Translations under genes and position numbers: made by a program
Notes under the pieces: model-generated
Seen by the model: the letters and a program-made list of their open reading frames with translations, nothing else
Database searches by the model: none
What the model was told of the DNA's origin: nothing
Part shown: in pieces, positions 34,153 to 42,432 of the stretch
How the letters are laid out: the number at the start of each line of letters is the position of its first letter
Numbering within the stretch: the stretch's first letter is position 1
Origin: a candidate division TA06 bacterium JGI_Cruoil_03_38_101
GTDB taxonomy: Bacteria; Hydrothermota; UBA3072
DNA: 64,000 bases
Assembly: GCA_002215665.1 (NCBI GenBank)
Contig: NGFL01000063.1
Coordinates: 8,049-72,048 of the forward strand
Reading direction: 5' to 3'

Positions 34153-34184
34153 AAAAAGGGACAGCCCAGCTGTCCCTTTTTTAT
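34152..34184. terminator. Rho-independent terminator shared by groEL (+) and the converging minus-strand operon
   Basis: A-run, perfect hairpin GGGACAGC-ccagc-TGTCCC (34158-34176), then TTTTTT. Confidence 0.75.
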
Positions 34185-34924
34185 TAGCTCTTCGCAATAT
34201 ATAGAATTCTTTTAGTGAATCGATCAACTCTTGAATGTTCAAAACACTTAAAGGTTCCCTGAATGGAAAAACCTGAAGACTCGAGCCCCTCTCTTATCTT
34301 ATCCTCGGTATACCCCCTCTCCCTGTGTATCTCATCCACCCTTGACCATCCATTATCCTTTTTTATATAGAGAGTTAGATGAAGAGTTAGTATTCTTTCC
34401 TTTTCGTCATAAGCATTTCTCCAAACGCTTATAAGGTTTGTATTATCCTTTCTAACATCTCTTTCCAATACGGTCTTTAAACCGTAAGGTGTGTTTAAAT
34501 CGAATATAAAATGCCCCCCTGGTAAAAGGGATTCCTTAATTGAATCAAAGGCCGCGAGTAGATCATTGTAGTCCAGAATATAGTTCAAAGAATCAAAAAT
34601 TGATATTACGAGATTGAAGTGACCCGCAAAAGGAAGGTTCCTGGCATTAGCCTGGACGAAAAATAAGTCCGATCTTTTCCTCTTTGCGACTTCAAGCATT
34701 TCAAAAGAGCCATCAGCCCCTATTATAGAGCTTAAACCCGTCTCAACAAAAGGTATAGTTGAGTTTCCCGTTCCACAGGTAACATCGAGTAGAGAAGACA
34801 TCTGAACATCATAAAGATCGGCAATATCAAGGATATAATGAATCCAACCCTCATAATCCACATCTTTCATAAGATCATCATAGTACCCGGCTATTTTACT
34901 GAAGGATTTAGTCAAACTGTTCAT
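34184..34924 (-). CDS. Class I SAM-dependent methyltransferase
   Basis: 246 aa; motif I LDVTCGTGNSTIPF; last gene of the coupled operon (overlaps upstream gene by 17 nt). Confidence 0.8.
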   Translation of the reverse strand: MNSLTKSFSKIAGYYDDLMKDVDYEGWIHYILDIADLYDVQMSSLLDVTCGTGNSTIPFVETGLSSIIGADGSFEMLEVAKRKRSDLFFVQANARNLPFAGHFNLVISIFDSLNYILDYNDLLAAFDSIKESLLPGGHFIFDLNTPYGLKTVLERDVRKDNTNLISVWRNAYDEKERILTLHLTLYIKKDNGWSRVDEIHRERGYTEDKIREGLESSGFSIQGTFKCFEHSRVDRFTKRILYIAKS

Positions 34925-35693
34925 ATAGGATCTTTCCTTCCTCTATCTTAAATTGCCCAGCATCTATTTTTGGTATGAAGGGAAGATAACCTCTTTCCAC
35001 CATATCGGATAGAGATTTGGGATAGTATCCCTTATCTCGCTGAAACTTCATCGCCTGATCCCTTAACACCTTCATTATTCCTTTTATTGCCTTTTCTCTG
35101 AAGATCTTACTCGCTGACATATTGTAAAGTTGCAGATAGAGTCGGAGCGTAACTTCAACCCCCTTACCAAGAGATAAAGTCCAAGTTGCAAACTTAAGGG
35201 CTATTTCTGGAGAGTTCTCTTTGTATGAAGAGATAAGAAACCATTTGGATGCTTCTTTGTAATCTTTTGTATAGAGGTAATAAATAAAACCCTTTGTAAA
35301 TGGAATCTCCCAATATGTCGGATTTTTATATAGACCCTTATCCAGTAATTTTATACCAAGGTCTATCCTCTTTGCATCATCTGAGAGAAGCATTGACCCG
35401 AGGGTATAGGCAGGGATAAACTGAGGATCAAGGTCGGTTAATACTTCGAGTATGTGATAAAGATAATGATAACTCCTATCGCTCATGCGATGCTTACCAT
35501 AGTAAACCCCTGTTTCTATCCAAATAAAGTCAGCAAAAAGATTATCAAAACCAGAGGTAATTCCCTGAACGAACTTGCCCGAAGGGAAAAATAAGAGCTC
35601 TTCTCCCTTTACCCCTGGAATCCATTTAAATCCTTTTATCTCTACAAAAACTAATAGAACAATCAAGGTAATAAGGACTGCTGACCTCTTCAT
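34908..35693 (-). CDS. Hypothetical exported protein with signal peptide and TPR-like helical repeats
   Basis: 261 aa; N-terminal signal MKRSAVLITLIVLLVFVEI; helical repeats rich in Y/W/K; no family recognised. Confidence 0.5.
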   Translation of the reverse strand: MKRSAVLITLIVLLVFVEIKGFKWIPGVKGEELLFFPSGKFVQGITSGFDNLFADFIWIETGVYYGKHRMSDRSYHYLYHILEVLTDLDPQFIPAYTLGSMLLSDDAKRIDLGIKLLDKGLYKNPTYWEIPFTKGFIYYLYTKDYKEASKWFLISSYKENSPEIALKFATWTLSLGKGVEVTLRLYLQLYNMSASKIFREKAIKGIMKVLRDQAMKFQRDKGYYPKSLSDMVERGYLPFIPKIDAGQFKIEEGKILYEQFD

Positions 35694-36457
35694 AGATATT
35701 CTTTCTTAGAGTAGAGAAATGAAGAGATGAGAATGAGAATCGTTGAATAAAGAATCGAATAGGAGAAAGCCAAGAGGTAAGAATTTATTGATATTGGAAG
35801 ATGGTAGACCACCGAGGGTTTTACATTAAAAACTGAGAAATTAGGTAGAATGAAATATAAAAAGTTGACCAACCATGAAAAGTTAGATAAATTCATCATC
35901 ACAACAAGTTCTTTGAGATAATGAGTTAGGTGGCCTATAAAGAAAATAAGCAGAGTGAGTATTCCGGAAGTAAAGGGCGAAGTAAAGCAGGAAAGAAAAA
36001 CAGCCACAGCATCAAGGAGTAAGAATTCGAAAAGATAGAAATAGAGGACATTCAAAAGATACCAATCAACCCTCCCCAAGTAAAATCTGGTAAACAGGAA
36101 GAAGATGGCAAAAAGAATGAACTGAACAACTATTATAAGATAGTATAATCCAAAGAATTTTCCCGAGATAAACTCGAGGTCTGTTACTGGTTTTGTCATA
36201 ATTGAATAGATCGTTTTTCTTTCTATCTCCTGATAAAGGATGCGAGTCCCAATGAAAGTGACGATGAGAACTTCAAAGATTTCGACCATGCTAACCCCAA
36301 AATCTTTTATTATCTTTGCTCCCTGTCCAATTGATATTGGGACAAAAATCTTAGAAGAAGCTAAAAATATAAATCCCAATATTACAAGAGAAAGAAGGAT
36401 CTTATCTCGAAGGGATTCTTTAAATGTATTCTGAGCAATGGCTAAAACCTTATTCAT
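35690..36457 (-). CDS. ABC-2 family transporter permease
   Basis: 255 aa, six predicted TM segments, overlaps the ATPase gene by 8 nt. Confidence 0.7.
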   Translation of the reverse strand: MNKVLAIAQNTFKESLRDKILLSLVILGFIFLASSKIFVPISIGQGAKIIKDFGVSMVEIFEVLIVTFIGTRILYQEIERKTIYSIMTKPVTDLEFISGKFFGLYYLIIVVQFILFAIFFLFTRFYLGRVDWYLLNVLYFYLFEFLLLDAVAVFLSCFTSPFTSGILTLLIFFIGHLTHYLKELVVMMNLSNFSWLVNFLYFILPNFSVFNVKPSVVYHLPISINSYLLAFSYSILYSTILILISSFLYSKKEYL

Positions 36458-37358
36458 TTATTGCCTTCATGAAGTGTTCTTCAAGAGTTAATCTTACAGG
36501 AACGATTGAGATTATTTTTCCTCCCCTTTCAATAATTTCTTTTATCACTTTGTCTCTTTTAGTTTCTTCTCTCAAGCGAAGATATATCACTTTACCTTCA
36601 CTTCTCACCTCACCATATTTTTCGAGATATCCAGATTCAGGGAATCTCTCAATCATAATCTCTATATATCTAATATCGCTTTTTAAGATCTCTCGAATAG
36701 AGCCAACTTTCTTTAGCTTCCCATTGAGGATTATCCCGACTTTACTGCAGATGGCCTCCACATCAGAAAGAATGTGAGATGAGAATAGAATCGTTTTACC
36801 CTTACTTTTCTCTCCCTCAATTAGATCCTTAATTTCTCTTCTACCAATGGGATCCAGACCTGATAATGGTTCATCTAAAATGAGAAGTTCCGGGTCGCCT
36901 ATGAGAGCCTGGGCAAAACCTATTCTCTGGACCATTCCCTTTGAATAACTGGAAATCCTCTTACCCATACTATCTTTGAGCCCTACTACTTCGAGTTTTT
37001 CTTTTATTTCATTATCATTGAGATTCTTTCCATATAATCTTGCATAGAACTGAAGCAATTCCTTACCTGTTAGATGGCGATAAAAGGAAGGGTTCTCAGG
37101 CAAAAAGCCAATTCTCCTTCTTGCTTCCTTAGGAACGTATTTCCCAAAAAGGGTCACCTTGCCCGAAGTTGGCTTTAAGAGACCTCCTATGATCTTTAAA
37201 GTCGTCGTCTTACCCGCGCCGTTTGGCCCAAGAAGCCCAAATATTTCACCTTTTTCAATTTCAAAATCAAGACCATTTACTCCGATAGATTTCTTCATCA
37301 AAAATGGGGATTTATATATCTTAACGAGTGATTTAATCTCAACTATGATCATTCCCAT
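36450..37358 (-). CDS. ABC transporter ATP-binding protein (ABC-2 exporter type, with C-terminal accessory domain)
   Basis: 302 aa; Walker A GPNGAGKTTT, signature LSGLDP-type, Walker B ILDEP, H-loop; extra ~80 aa C-terminal domain. Confidence 0.9.
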   Translation of the reverse strand: MGMIIVEIKSLVKIYKSPFLMKKSIGVNGLDFEIEKGEIFGLLGPNGAGKTTTLKIIGGLLKPTSGKVTLFGKYVPKEARRRIGFLPENPSFYRHLTGKELLQFYARLYGKNLNDNEIKEKLEVVGLKDSMGKRISSYSKGMVQRIGFAQALIGDPELLILDEPLSGLDPIGRREIKDLIEGEKSKGKTILFSSHILSDVEAICSKVGIILNGKLKKVGSIREILKSDIRYIEIMIERFPESGYLEKYGEVRSEGKVIYLRLREETKRDKVIKEIIERGGKIISIVPVRLTLEEHFMKAINE

Positions 37359-38458
37359 ATTCCTGCGACCTCATTTCCACAACTTGGACATTTATTGTTC
37401 TTTATCTTATTCACAATCACTGAGAAACCGCGTCTTTTTATCAGTAATTCCCCACAGGAAGGGCAATAGGTGTTGGATCCAGGATGATCTATTGCTACAT
37501 TGCCTACATAAGAGTAATGAATACCCATCTCAAGAGCCAGTTTTCTTGCATCTTCTACAGTTTTTAAAGGAGTGGGAGGAAGGTTTTCCAGTTTATAGGT
37601 TGGGAAAAACCTTGAAAAATGTATCGGGACATCCTTCCCTAAATTATCAAGGACCCACTCAATCATCTTTTTTATCTCCTTTCTCTCATCATTTATTGTT
37701 GGAACGATAAGATAGGTTATCTCCAACCACACTCCACCTTCTTTCAACCTCTTCAGGGTATTGAGGACTGGCTCTAAGGAGCCAGCAGAGACTTCCAAAT
37801 ATTCCTTATTTTCAAAAAACTTAAGATCTATATTTGCCCCATCGAGAAAAGGTATCAATTCAAGAAGTGGTTTCTTTTGAAGATAACCATTTGAGTGATA
37901 AATATTCTTTATTCCTTTTTCCCGGGCAAGTTTAGCAGAGTCAATCATATACTCAATGAAAATTGATGGTTCAGTATAGGTATAAGCTATTGAACTGATG
38001 TCGTATTTTCTTCTATAATAGATTACATTTTCCATTAAGAGTTCAGGAGGCAATTCATAATTTCTTGTCCACTCAGGTCGAACCTGTGATATACTGTAAT
38101 TTTGGCAGTATTTACAATGGAAGTTGCAACCTGCTGTAGCAATTGAGAAAGCAAAAGTTCCCGGGAGGAAATGGTAGAGAGGTTTCTTTTCCATTGGGTC
38201 AAGGTGGACTGCGCAGGGGTTACCATACACAAGAGTATATAACTTTCCTCCTCTATTCTCGCGTGCTCTACAAAACCCCCTTTCTCCGTCTTTTAATATA
38301 CATTTATGCGGGCAATTCTGGCATTGAACTATGCCTCCCTCCATTTTTACCCAATAAGAAGCTATACGAGGTTTAATATAACCTCTGGTTTCAGTATCTT
38401 TTGCCCTTAGTGTTAGAGGAAGGAGTGCCAGCGTCTTTAAGAATTCTCTTCTATCCAT
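37349..38458 (-). CDS. AmmeMemoRadiSam-type (AmrS/PflA-like) radical SAM enzyme with N-terminal twin-arginine-like signal peptide
   Basis: 369 aa; N-terminal MDRREFLKTLALLPLTLRA; AmrS-type N-domain ASYWVKMEGGIVQCQNCPHKCIL..GFCRAREN; radical SAM CNFHCKYCQN; HFSRFFPTYKL; C-terminal CPSCG...CPSCG. Confidence 0.8.
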   Translation of the reverse strand: MDRREFLKTLALLPLTLRAKDTETRGYIKPRIASYWVKMEGGIVQCQNCPHKCILKDGERGFCRARENRGGKLYTLVYGNPCAVHLDPMEKKPLYHFLPGTFAFSIATAGCNFHCKYCQNYSISQVRPEWTRNYELPPELLMENVIYYRRKYDISSIAYTYTEPSIFIEYMIDSAKLAREKGIKNIYHSNGYLQKKPLLELIPFLDGANIDLKFFENKEYLEVSAGSLEPVLNTLKRLKEGGVWLEITYLIVPTINDERKEIKKMIEWVLDNLGKDVPIHFSRFFPTYKLENLPPTPLKTVEDARKLALEMGIHYSYVGNVAIDHPGSNTYCPSCGELLIKRRGFSVIVNKIKNNKCPSCGNEVAGIWE

Positions 38459-38610
38459 TTATAGGATATTAACTAATATTACTCTCTTGTCAAGAATTTC
38501 AGTAGTAGAAAAGCTCAAAGTCCGAAAGTTTTAGCGACTAACATCGCAGTTACACTTATAATGCCAACCGTGAAGTTGTCGTTTAATCCTATCTGCACTC
38601 ATTACCATTT

Positions 38611-39078
38611 TTATTCTATTTTTCTTAGCCTCTCATCCATTTCTGCAATTATTGCTCTGAGATGGGCTAGCTCTTTTTTAATTCTTTCCACCTCCTCATT
38701 CTTTTCTTCTTTTAGCTCTTTTTCCCTTGAAGGTAGTTTATGCTCCTCGGTGGGAATTTGACTTTCTAAATACTCATCCAAAATATTTTGGATCTTACCG
38801 TAGGCTCCAGCAATTGGTTTTATCCCCAATTCTGAAAACCAATTCTGTGCTTTTGGCCCCATTCCTCCTGCGAAAATCATTTCTGCGCCCTTTTCCTTTA
38901 TAAACTTGGGGATAGCACCAGACTCGTGGCTCTCAAGATAGGGGTTTTTCTCCACTTTTACATTCTTTACCCTATCACCTTCTACCTCAACAAAGGTGAA
39001 GTATGGACATCTTCCAAAGTGGTAGGCTAGAATACCATCCAGACCTTTCTCATCATCAGAAGCAAATGAAATAATCAT
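38611..39078 (-). CDS. NifX/NafY-like dinitrogenase FeMo-cofactor family protein (PF02579-like) with C-terminal coiled-coil tail
   Basis: 155 aa; HFGRCPYFTFVEV...AGGMGPKA core; K/E-rich C-terminal 45 aa. Confidence 0.65.
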   Translation of the reverse strand: MIISFASDDEKGLDGILAYHFGRCPYFTFVEVEGDRVKNVKVEKNPYLESHESGAIPKFIKEKGAEMIFAGGMGPKAQNWFSELGIKPIAGAYGKIQNILDEYLESQIPTEEHKLPSREKELKEEKNEEVERIKKELAHLRAIIAEMDERLRKIE

Positions 39079-42123: not shown

Positions 42124-42432
42124 CTAACCCAGCCTTATTGCTTTAACCGGACAGGCAGCAACACAGATGCCACAACCCGTGCATTTTGTCTTATCAATCT
42201 TTGCGGTTTCATTTATAGAAATAGCATTAATAGGACATTGGTTGACACAAATCCCGCATCCTGTGCATTTTTCCTTATCAACAATAGCTTTTTGTTGCTT
42301 AATAGTTATCTGTCTTTGAGGTGGGGAAACCCTGTTTACTGGCTCTTGAAAGAACCTACTTCTCCCTCTACCCAAACCTCTACCAGTTCCTGGACCCTTT
42401 CCCATTGGACCTGTTCCATCTCCTCTTGGCAT
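42124..42432 (-). CDS. DUF5320-like Gly/Arg-rich N-terminal domain fused to 2x[4Fe-4S] ferredoxin
   Basis: 102 aa; MPRGDGTGPMGKGPGTGRGLGRGR N-terminus; two CxxCxxCxxxCP motifs (CTGCGICVNQCP, CTGCGICVAACP); strong SD AAAGGAGG. Confidence 0.65.
   Translation of the reverse strand: MPRGDGTGPMGKGPGTGRGLGRGRSRFFQEPVNRVSPPQRQITIKQQKAIVDKEKCTGCGICVNQCPINAISINETAKIDKTKCTGCGICVAACPVKAIRLG

Follow-up and report, generated by a model that had tools for sequence, protein, structure and literature searches.

A probable Tat signal peptide on a radical SAM enzyme of the AmmeMemoRadiSam family, and the inferred export of its branch

Dependence on SAM, on a low-potential electron donor and on Fe-S cluster assembly is the reason why radical SAM enzymes are regarded as strictly cytoplasmic. 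What, then, is to be made of a radical SAM enzyme whose N-terminus reads like a twin-arginine (Tat) signal peptide? The question is raised by amrS, a gene in the 64-kb stretch of DNA analysed here ("the window"). The answer offered below is that this is a genuine Tat signal, probably functional, on a member of a large and undescribed branch of exported AmrS proteins; export itself is inferred.

The enzyme, its leader and its start

The gene and the recognizable parts of its product are the following:

37349..38458, minus strand: amrS, encoding a 369-aa radical SAM enzyme of the AmmeMemoRadiSam system that has a signal-like extension at its N-terminus (TIGR04337, PF04055)
38402..38458, minus strand: residues 1-19 (MDRREFLKTLALLPLTLRA), predicted to be a Tat-type signal peptide, with LRA↓KD as putative signal-peptidase site (sequence reading)
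38435..38455, minus strand: twin-arginine motif D-R-R-E-F-L-K, residues 2-8 (sequence, homologue conservation)
38408..38434, minus strand: h-region TLALLPLTL, residues 9-17, with a central Pro (sequence)
38360..38401, minus strand: linker from the signal to the conserved domain, residues 20-33 (KDTETRGYIKPRIA) (sequence)
38270..38323, minus strand: N-terminal Cys motif C46-x2-C49-x3-C53...C63, invariant in 36 aligned homologues
38105..38128, minus strand: radical SAM cluster motif C111-x3-C115-x2-C118, invariant in 36 homologues and lying within the PF04055 match
37379..37465, minus strand: zinc-ribbon-like C-terminal motif C332-x2-C335...C357-x2-C360 (homologue alignment)

The original prediction had identified the radical SAM gene as amrS, correctly: in a profile search the protein scores 350 bits with TIGR04337 (cutoff 220), and PF04055 scores 72.5 bits. 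The TIGR04337 alignment pairs residues 34-369 with profile positions 2-334; the first 33 residues are accordingly an extension, and the conserved domain does start where it had been placed, some 30 residues into the protein. The N-terminal Cys motif is likely to be an auxiliary metal or Fe-S site (its function is inferred); in the C-terminal motif C332, C357 and C360 are invariant among aligned AmrS homologues and C335 is present in at least 90% of them. The AmmeMemoRadiSam family to which the enzyme belongs is uncharacterised; NCBI MEA1913445.1 falls into one 90% cluster with the window protein. No solved AmrS structure was found, and pyruvate formate-lyase activating enzyme (PFL-AE) alone comes close: it is the closest solved structure by sequence (PDB 3c8f, 3cb8; E = 2e-6) and, with Foldseek, the closest fold to the AF2 model of the window enzyme (3cb8; E = 2e-14, TM 0.82 on target; mean pLDDT of the model 90.5). 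PFL-AE, a cytoplasmic enzyme of 245 aa, differs from the window AmrS in having no signal, no C-terminal Cys pairs and no Cys motif at the N-terminus; TIGR02493 gives 64 bits on the window enzyme, against a cutoff of 232.

The protein begins MDRREFLKTLALLPLTLRAKDTETRGYIKPRIASYW: MDRREFLK, then a nine-residue hydrophobic stretch, then LRA↓KD, with R18 and K20 flanking the putative cleavage site. Measured against the consensus (S/T)-R-R-x-F-L-K, the motif departs solely at position -1 (D or N for S or T). The h-region is the weak point: T9-L17 comprises merely nine uncharged residues (mean Kyte-Doolittle hydropathy 1.98), while Tat h-regions are typically 12-20 residues long and TATFIND reportedly demands at least 13 uncharged ones. 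The description of the signal as canonical-looking consequently stands for the RR motif and the A-x-A-like site, and does not apply to the h-region, which is too short for it. In the AF2 model helices are seen at residues 3-11 and 13-16; pLDDT is below 50 at residues 14-23 and high from about residue 31 (block means of 48 for residues 11-20 and 66 for residues 21-30), which places the signal segment outside the AmrS fold; as modelled, the N-terminal helix is detached from it. The linker sequence differs between AmrS homologues.

(A technical note: Tat profile HMMs are treated as uninformative here, because E. coli TorA, the positive control, also stays below cutoff, failing both models with 16.5 bits against 16.7 for TIGR01409 and no Pfam match. 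For the window AmrS, Pfam TAT_signal (PF10518) gives 12.3 bits on residues 1-12, with a cutoff of 22.7, and a TIGR01409 search gives no match.)

Is the RR peptide made at all? Translation might start instead at M39, or at a non-canonical codon downstream, and the lack of a Shine-Dalgarno sequence at the annotated ATG speaks for such a wrong start: no Shine-Dalgarno core was found before it, although 35 of the 60 window genes have one. M39 has none either, however, and leaderless-looking starts are common among the window genes. What precedes the annotated ATG is a promoter:

38466..38493, minus strand: sigma-70-like promoter TTGACA-16 nt-TAATAT, ending 7 nt before the amrS ATG (10 of 12 matches)

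The leaderless appearance originally remarked on, with TAATAT upstream and no Shine-Dalgarno sequence, is thus confirmed (TAATAT at 38471..38466, 7 nt upstream of the ATG) and is now joined by TTGACA at 16-nt spacing. In the window and three relatives (L086, L087, L088) TTGACA is invariant and the -10 box is kept 7-8 nt from the ATG, while upstream DNA and upstream genes otherwise differ. A promoter whose position is conserved in four genomes despite differing upstream DNA makes it probable that the mRNA is leaderless, a prediction made without a mapped transcription start site. As had been claimed, no canonical alternative start precedes the conserved region: no in-frame ATG, GTG or TTG lies between M1 and M39. 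M39 itself is rejected, being unconserved in relatives and situated inside the conserved TIGR04337 domain, which a start there would truncate. Codons 3-10, compared in four relatives, have accumulated many synonymous changes and a single conservative replacement (E/D); by this comparison the N-terminal codons are under purifying selection at the amino-acid level, and the RR pattern is not a product of chance. On such comparative grounds the annotated ATG is taken as the true start, and a start downstream can hardly be sustained.

Export signals, fusions and tat genes among the relatives

Within the subclade to which the enzyme belongs (36 homologues, 57-100% identity) R3, R4 and F6 are found in every sequence, L7 and K8 in 34, P14 of the h-region in 33, and a putative cleavage site ALA↓K in most. 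The short h-region is shared as well: most subclade members have 9-11 uncharged residues, where most other RR-type sequences in a set of 120 homologues have 12-26. Had all homologues begun at the ASYW region, the signal interpretation would have been refuted; they do not, an RR-x-F-L-K type N-terminus being observed in 96 of the 120 best homologues, with most of the others Sec-like or bearing a lipobox. Beyond the subclade, its nearest relatives carry Tat signals of full length which clear the TIGR01409 cutoff; the homologues passing this model include P0054, P0085, P0039 and P0070, and P0054 and P0085 have a long h-region. Among 150 representatives (50% clustering) retrieved using the mature AmrS domain alone, an RR or hydrophobic N-terminus occurs in 34 of the top 50 and 14 of the next 100. 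The h-regions of RR-type AmrS proteins are less hydrophobic and richer in G/A/S/T (mean Kyte-Doolittle 1.73; 46%) than the Sec signals of Memo-AMMECR1 partner proteins (2.12; 28%), as expected for Tat versus Sec (Mann-Whitney p = 1e-10 for hydropathy, the sequences not being independent).

Those partners are encoded next to amrS in 38 of 83 related loci, and Sec or lipoprotein signals are observed on the adjacent Memo-AMMECR1 protein in 36 of the 38 and on 107 of 120 Memo-AMMECR1 homologues. Pairing of signals on AmrS and Memo-AMMECR1 was considered as a test of co-localisation and discarded as non-discriminating: signal-bearing partners accompany all 29 signal-bearing AmrS proteins, but also seven of nine signal-less ones. 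(One of these seven cases, L072, is a frameshift artefact masking a membrane helix.) L077 has both a signal-bearing and a signal-less AmrS/Memo pair, which is counted in favour of export. Against it stand some relatives in which the Fe-S enzyme bears a Sec-type signal, or in which AmrS has no signal although its partner has one. A simple picture in which everything is exported fails to explain these latter cases.

Fusions bear on the same question. In related genomes AmrS domains are joined to outward-facing electron-transfer modules: flavinylated FMN_bind, NapH-like and DsbD_2. P0265 and P0272 have one N-terminal anchor and an FMN_bind domain before AmrS, with no membrane helix between, and the FMN_bind domain carries the ApbE-type flavinylation motif D-x-[IV]-[ST]-G-A-T; other fusions have CBM_11, a beta-propeller or Memo-AMMECR1 in place of FMN_bind behind the N-terminal anchor, or have AmrS follow DsbD_2 with an N-out, C-out charge pattern. 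In the NapH-like fusions P0256 and P0258 a crude hydropathy count finds the FMN domain followed by 6 and 5 helices respectively; the side on which AmrS lies is ambiguous in these two, and the topology argument is limited to the single-anchor fusions. ApbE-flavinylated systems of extracytosolic electron transfer, with FMN_bind, NapH-like and DsbD components, have been described (Meheust et al. 2021, PMC8238504), without mention of radical SAM, Memo or AMMECR1 cargo. The fusions are made of exactly these modules, flavinylation motif included, and offer a possible electron route to an outward-facing enzyme; the window AmrS lacks any module of this kind, both in its own chain and in the genes next to it. 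In two loci (L009 and L010), finally, tatA-tatC lie ~2.4 kb from an RR-type AmrS.

The interpretation of the leader as a sign of extracytoplasmic radical SAM chemistry, with which this analysis started, has gained support from the RR-type homologues, the signal-bearing partners, the single-anchor fusions and the tatA-tatC linkage, export remaining an inference. Because relatives and partner proteins in many anaerobic bacteria also carry export signals, AmrS chemistry probably also works outside the inner membrane. A wider proposal is more tentative, and is put forward at somewhat less than even odds: that many anaerobic bacteria and some archaea keep a whole radical-SAM modification system outside the cytoplasmic membrane, composed of Tat-exported AmrS, Sec-exported or lipidated Memo-AMMECR1, a conserved polytopic MFS/spermidine-synthase-like membrane protein, and an electron supply through FMN_bind, NapH-like or DsbD-like modules.

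The operon in the window and the possible meanings of its leader

In the window amrS heads an operon of a different composition:

36450..37358, minus strand: ABC transporter ATPase, its start overlapping the amrS stop by 10 nt (PF00005, 105.8 bits)
35690..36457, minus strand: ABC-2 type permease (PF12679, 31.1 bits)
34908..35693, minus strand: protein of 261 aa, unmatched to any family, with a single hydrophobic helix at its N-terminus (sequence)
34184..34924, minus strand: class I SAM-dependent methyltransferase, signal-less, the last gene of the operon (PF13649, PF08241)

This gene order is conserved in L086, L087 and L088. No Memo, AMMECR1 or MFS/spermidine-synthase-like neighbour was found at the window locus or at the other WOR-3 loci (those without adjacent Memo/AMMECR1 are L070, L086-L088, L089 and L090). 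A tblastn search with a Memo-AMMECR1 fusion found no counterpart in the 64-kb window, and neither Memo nor AMMECR1 domains are among the precomputed Pfam matches on called genes of the flanking loci L091 and L092. Nor were tatA or tatC found, in the window by motif regular expression and tblastn, or among the same kind of Pfam matches in the 10-kb flanking loci. That the organism has a periplasm is concluded from its TonB/ExbBD genes and its C-terminal sorting domains of T9SS type.

How might these facts be accommodated jointly? The explanation preferred here, with a probability of roughly 0.6 and on sequence evidence, is that a leaderless amrS encodes a short but functional Tat signal and that the enzyme is moved across the inner membrane or anchored outside it. 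Translation would begin at the annotated ATG, residues ~1-19 serving as the signal peptide; folding and loading with Fe-S clusters, possibly also with SAM, would take place in the cytoplasm, after which AmrS would be translocated by the Tat pathway over the inner membrane (the bacterium, of the WOR-3 group, is a diderm) or would stay anchored on its outer face, to act on an envelope or periplasmic substrate. The enzyme would belong to a large exported branch spanning many phyla, in other lineages of which Memo-AMMECR1 would be Sec-exported or lipidated and electrons would pass outward through FMN_bind, NapH-like or DsbD-like modules; in the WOR-3 subclade, by contrast, amrS is the first gene of an operon that also encodes a methyltransferase, an ABC-2 exporter and a membrane-anchored protein. 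What the data show directly is membership in the family, the start codon and RR conservation, together with, for other genomes, partner signals, fusions and linkage to tat; the substrate, and the electron source in this organism, are inferred just as export is. Against export one must set the nine-residue h-region, the below-cutoff Tat HMM scores and the fact that no tat or Memo/AMMECR1 genes are seen nearby; we also know of no SAM source outside the cytoplasm.

With a wrong start set aside, two readings that keep the catalytic domain inside have to be weighed. The RR peptide may be what remains of a true Tat signal: export would have been lost and the peptide kept for binding a chaperone or partner, or for keeping the enzyme close to the inner side of the membrane; it would work in the cytoplasm, with SAM and reductant available, and the problem of SAM supply disappears. 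E. coli NarG is said to present a vestigial twin-arginine motif of this sort on a non-exported enzyme, and the resemblance extends to a conserved RR on a cofactor-containing enzyme whose default expected location is the cytoplasm. The shrinking of the h-region in the subclade, the Tat HMM scores under cutoff, the loss of neighbouring exported partners and the failure to find tat genes in the window or flanking loci all speak for this reading. A chaperone tag, however, needs neither a hydrophobic core nor an A-x-A-type site, and both are conserved here along with the RR (the site as ALA↓K or LRA↓K); unlike NarG, the window enzyme retains these two elements and has relatives with independent signs of export. 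The nearest of those relatives outside the subclade carry intact, full-length signals, and the operon includes an exporter and a membrane-anchored protein. Degeneration to a cytoplasmic tag is for these reasons considered unlikely, though not negligible.

Alternatively the short helix may associate with the membrane or insert into it (peripherally, or N-out/C-in), tethering the catalytic domain on the cytoplasmic face beside the ABC-2 transporter encoded downstream. The charge distribution would suit that arrangement, more positive charges following the hydrophobic stretch (R18, K20, R25, K29, R31) than preceding it, and in some relatives (L053) RRERS stands after a membrane helix. Yet Tat signals normally have basic residues past the h-region ("Sec avoidance"), a stretch of nine residues is too short to cross a bilayer, and the invariant RR-x-F-L-K is a Tat recognition motif and not a feature of anchors; the flavinylated FMN_bind and CBM_11 fusions, moreover, put the AmrS domain outside. 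A cytoplasmic tether is correspondingly judged quite improbable.

What an exported AmrS would mean

The Tat-exported Fe-S proteins (NapG/NrfC-type ferredoxins, hydrogenase small subunits, Rieske proteins) provide one frame for comparison. The window enzyme is like them in its Fe-S passenger, its N-terminal S/T-R-R-x-F-L-K motif, its weakly hydrophobic h-region and the basic residues near its c-region; it is unlike them in that the passenger is a radical SAM enzyme, requiring SAM plus electrons, and in that the h-region has just nine residues. No published exported, periplasmic or Tat-dependent radical SAM enzyme was found in the literature, and on AmmeMemoRadiSam or WOR-3 together with Tat nothing relevant was found beyond Balaji & Aravind 2007 and Meheust 2021.

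The other frame is provided by classical AmrS (TIGR04337), signal-less and 325-350 aa long, which is of the same family by HMM and has in common with the window enzyme the C-x3-C-x2-C motif, the N-terminal C-x2-C-x3-C...C and the C-terminal Cys pairs. Relatives of the window enzyme, like classical AmrS, associate with Memo and AMMECR1 homologues; the window enzyme differs in its 33-residue RR-bearing extension, in belonging to a branch that mostly bears export signals, and in having no Memo or AMMECR1 gene in the window. AMMECR1 and MEMO1 are conserved from archaea to humans. AMMECR1 had no established biochemical function as of 2007, when a role in RNA modification was proposed for it and the radical SAM enzyme (Balaji & Aravind 2007, PMC2034487). 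That proposal does not fit an exported version of AmrS.

Four lines of evidence (an Fe-S enzyme with Tat signals, partners with Sec or lipoprotein signals, fusions to electron-transfer modules that face outward, and adjacent tat genes in two loci) point toward a conserved exported AmrS branch in many phyla which, if real, would break the cytoplasm-only rule for radical SAM enzymes and constitute the first extracytoplasmic radical SAM chemistry. The AmrS leader is short, and easily put to the test with standard Tat reporters. Either SAM itself would have to be exported, or the folded enzyme would have to take it along in bound form. Such a branch would raise the questions of how SAM gets into the periplasm, whether it serves catalytically and which molecule of the envelope is modified. 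For the bacterial relatives of human AMMECR1 and MEMO1 it would point to a substrate in the cell envelope and not to RNA: an extracytoplasmic version argues against the RNA-modification role, in bacteria at least, and would narrow the search for what these proteins act upon.

The extension and its start codon

The argument turns on one gene and the few nucleotides ahead of it:

37349..38458, minus strand: amrS ORF, 369 aa, with the signal-like segment at its 5' end
38493-38488, minus strand: -35-like TTGACA upstream of amrS
38471-38466, minus strand: -10-like TAATAT, 16-nt spacer after TTGACA, 7 nt before the amrS ATG

The product is the AmmeMemoRadiSam-system radical SAM enzyme AmrS (NCBIfam TIGR04337, 350 bits vs a cutoff of 220), with a Pfam Radical_SAM domain; the TIGR04337 alignment runs from residue 34 to the C-terminal end. 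Residues 1-33, MDRREFLKTLALLPLTLRAKDTETRGYIKPRIA, comprise D-R-R-E-F-L-K (residues 2-8), nine uncharged residues (TLALLPLTL) and R-A|K-D, an A-x-A-like site. The original prediction of a "canonical-looking" twin-arginine (Tat) signal, with the conserved domain some 30 residues on, is accurate as to RR motif, A-x-A-like site and domain boundary; "canonical" does not hold for the hydrophobic stretch (h-region), which is markedly short for Tat. An AlphaFold2 model (mean pLDDT 90.5; closest solved fold PFL-AE) has short helices at residues 3-11 and 13-16, pLDDT below 50 at residues 14-23 and a confident fold from about residue 31: as modelled, the N-terminal segment is outside the enzyme fold.

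Could the start codon simply be wrong? This is very improbable, and less likely than the remnant leader discussed below. No in-frame ATG, GTG or TTG lies between M1 and M39, which is within the conserved domain and is not kept in relatives, so the claim that no alternative canonical start precedes that domain stands. The ATG lacks a Shine-Dalgarno sequence, which 35 of 60 window genes have. The promoter was compared with those of three WOR-3 relatives (loci L086, L087 and L088, at 72-75% protein identity): the genes upstream of amrS differ in all three and the other upstream DNA cannot be aligned, but TTGACA is invariant in all four, the -10 box is equally spaced and the ATG follows 7-8 nt on. 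The conserved position fits a leaderless mRNA, as had been proposed from the -10 box and the missing Shine-Dalgarno sequence, and settles that translation begins at the annotated ATG. Among the four genes, codons 3-10 (R R E F L K T L) differ at many synonymous sites and by a sole, conservative replacement (E/D), which argues that the RR peptide is made and that purifying selection acts on it.

(In this organism a leaderless start seems nothing unusual: first-in-operon genes starting at 2921, 9271, 16648 and 42628 likewise have no Shine-Dalgarno sequence, and a TATAAT-like box stands 5-8 nt upstream of each. The WOR-3 genome may well contain many leaderless mRNAs.)

Signals in the AmrS family

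A homology search gave 7979 matches. Among the best 120 (52-100% identity; WOR-3, Cloacimonadota, Omnitrophota, Chloroflexota and the PVC group), 96 have an RR-x-[hydrophobic]-[hydrophobic] N-terminus and the remainder mostly Sec-like or lipobox-like hydrophobic ones. The RR extension is conserved in the window protein's own subclade of 36 sequences: there M1, R3, R4 and F6 never vary, L7 and K8 are each retained in 34, L10 in 35 and P14 in 33, and A-L-A|K closes the segment in most. Their uncharged stretch is 9-11 residues long, vs 12-26 in most other RR-type members of the best 120. The mature domain alone, searched against 1.84 billion representatives clustered at 50% identity, gave 7939 matches; the best 150 include 33 RR-type, 15 with another hydrophobic N-terminus and 86 without extension. 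Signals occur in 34 of the top 50 vs 14 of the next 100, which places the window protein in a branch whose members bear signals, separate from the classical cytoplasmic AmrS of 325-350 aa.

How far does the segment resemble a Tat signal? With Pfam TAT_signal the window protein scores 12.3 bits (cutoff 22.7; residues 1-12 only), and TIGR01409 does not match it. E. coli TorA, the control, passes neither; several homologues whose h-regions are longer do pass TIGR01409. Both models are thus weak discriminators. When all the sequences are taken together, the h-regions of RR-type AmrS have a lower hydrophobicity than the partners' Sec-type signals (mean Kyte-Doolittle 1.73 vs 2.12) and are richer in G/A/S/T (46% vs 28%; Mann-Whitney p = 1e-10, the sequences not being independent). 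Lower h-region hydrophobicity is reportedly the classical difference of Tat from Sec signals.

Partners, fusions and neighbours

The locus survey covered 83 loci, 80 from species-representative genomes and three others. Their AmrS N-termini are RR-type in 31, KR or RK in 15 (mostly Bacteroidales with S-K-R-E-F-I-K, K-R standing in place of R-R), otherwise hydrophobic in 13, and without extension in about 22. (Between signal and domain, AmrS of Bacteroidales and Desulfobacterales has a further conserved motif, approximately LWKWSKEA: L014, L019, L023, L040, L041, L043, L052, L054, L068 and others.) Memo and AMMECR1, the partner proteins, are encoded near amrS in 38 of the 83 loci, almost always as a single fusion; in 36 of the 38 its N-terminus is a hydrophobic signal, in many cases with a lipobox. 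When the fusion was itself the query of a separate search, 107 of 120 homologues proved to bear signals (20 with a lipobox, only 3 with RR); most of the other 13 look like truncated start calls. In L004, a PVC-group genome, RR-type AmrS is followed, stop overlapping start, by a fused Memo-AMMECR1 with the Sec-type N-terminus MKKIHSIILGILAIFIFIIFHQSPAQS. Tat-type signals on the Fe-S protein and Sec-type signals on its partner are the pattern that genuine export would require. One Bacteroidales genome (L077, 3793-7151 and 10001-10960) has two sets side by side: signal-less AmrS and Memo, and KR-type signal-bearing AmrS with a lipobox-bearing Memo-AMMECR1.

AmrS is also found fused to other domains.

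AmrS fusions among the closest representatives (best of 7939) in the mature-domain search
P0243, P0249: DsbD_2 + AmrS
P0263: DsbD_2 + FMN_bind + Fer4_5 + AmrS
P0256, P0258: membrane helix + FMN_bind + Fer4_5 (NapH-like) + AmrS
P0265, P0272: one N-terminal helix + FMN_bind + AmrS, no helix in between
P0262: signal + CBM_11 + AmrS
P0245: signal + beta-propeller + AmrS
P0251: signal + Memo + AMMECR1 + AmrS

All 10 begin with a hydrophobic signal or a membrane domain, the loop charge pattern of P0243 puts its N-terminus and AmrS domain outside, and all five FMN_bind domains carry the ApbE flavinylation motif D-x-[IV]-[ST]-G-A-T. FMN_bind, NapH-like and DsbD modules are extracytosolic electron-transfer devices (Meheust et al. 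2021, PMC8238504, where radical SAM, Memo and AMMECR1 go unmentioned). These fusions answer the objection, raised with the original prediction, that the enzyme needs a low-potential reductant, at least for those lineages.

A tblastn search of the collected loci with E. coli TatC matched three, all with RR-type AmrS. A tatC is present at the edge of L073. In two distantly labelled genomes, L009 (Omnitrophota) and L010 (assigned by binning to Aenigmatarchaeota), a tatA-tatC pair lies about 2.4 kb from amrS with an MFS/SpdSyn gene in between:

L009:13434-13929: tatA-tatC
L010:11173-12151: tatA-tatC
L009:11119-13365, minus strand: MFS/SpdSyn-like gene beside amrS
L010:9039-11369, minus strand: MFS/SpdSyn-like gene beside amrS

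Of the 80 genome loci, 41 have this polytopic neighbour of about 750 aa next to amrS (the other 39 among L006-L085). It matches PF01564 and, at 45-50 bits (cutoff 40), NF037959, "fused MFS/spermidine synthase"; by a crude count 7 helices precede a SpdSyn-like domain of 300 aa and 7 more follow it. It has the look of a fourth component of the AmrS system, so far undescribed.

In the window, amrS heads a tightly packed, overlapping operon (amrS, ABC ATPase, ABC-2 permease, a 261-aa protein, SAM-dependent methyltransferase), followed by a convergent groEL/ES pair. The order is kept in all three relatives, the 261-aa protein following the permease in each:

34908-35693, minus strand: 261-aa protein, one N-terminal helix, no Pfam or NCBIfam match

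The window has no Memo or AMMECR1 gene by tblastn, no tat genes by regex and tblastn, and no MFS/SpdSyn gene was found in it; precomputed Pfam matches on called genes of the 10-kb flanking loci include no Memo, AMMECR1 or tat, and other WOR-3 loci likewise lack these neighbours. ExbB/ExbD/TonB and proteins with T9SS C-terminal sorting domains, encoded in the window flanks, indicate a diderm organism with a periplasm.

(Two other genes deserve mention. Upstream of amrS, 38611-39078 on the minus strand encodes a 155-aa protein with a Nitro_FeMo-Co domain (PF02579, NifX/NifB-C-like), similar also to the MrpORP C-terminus, and a charged, by eye possibly coiled-coil tail; it is not kept next to amrS in relatives. 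At 42124-42432, minus strand, a 102-aa protein joins a Gly/Arg-rich N-terminus (weak DUF5320 match) to a 2x[4Fe-4S] ferredoxin domain.)

Export or relic?

The most economical reading, to which we give a probability of about 0.6, is that this AmrS is exported, or anchored facing outward, by a minimal, functional Tat signal, export being inferred. Its main rival, unlikely though not negligible, is that a remnant leader has been kept for another purpose by an enzyme that stays cytoplasmic: the h-region has shrunk in this subclade, the exported partners have been lost as neighbours, and SAM supply outside the cytoplasm, for which we know of no source, is a problem for export; retention of the hydrophobic core and A-x-A site speaks against it. 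That the segment merely tethers the enzyme to the cytoplasmic face is less likely still.

The inferred export also leaves things unaccounted for. In five loci (L011, L050, L059, L061, L076) a Memo-AMMECR1 with a signal accompanies an AmrS that has none and is shortened at its N-terminus, an arrangement that a simple co-export model does not explain. (An apparent sixth, L072, is a frameshift artefact: the conserved REAKYY motif and a membrane helix lie in another frame.) In some relatives, the triple fusion P0251 included, the Fe-S enzyme itself has a Sec-type or lipoprotein signal, and we know of no route for maturing an Fe-S enzyme after Sec export.

We found no literature report of an exported or Tat-dependent radical SAM enzyme, nor any on the function of the AmmeMemoRadiSam system, although automatic database annotation may already flag some AmrS signals. 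Balaji & Aravind (2007, PMC2034487) linked AMMECR1, a radical SAM enzyme and a dioxygenase-like protein by gene neighbourhood and proposed RNA base modification; an exported AmrS system does not fit that proposal. The family is known and so is the targeting signal: their combination is unreported and mechanistically challenging.
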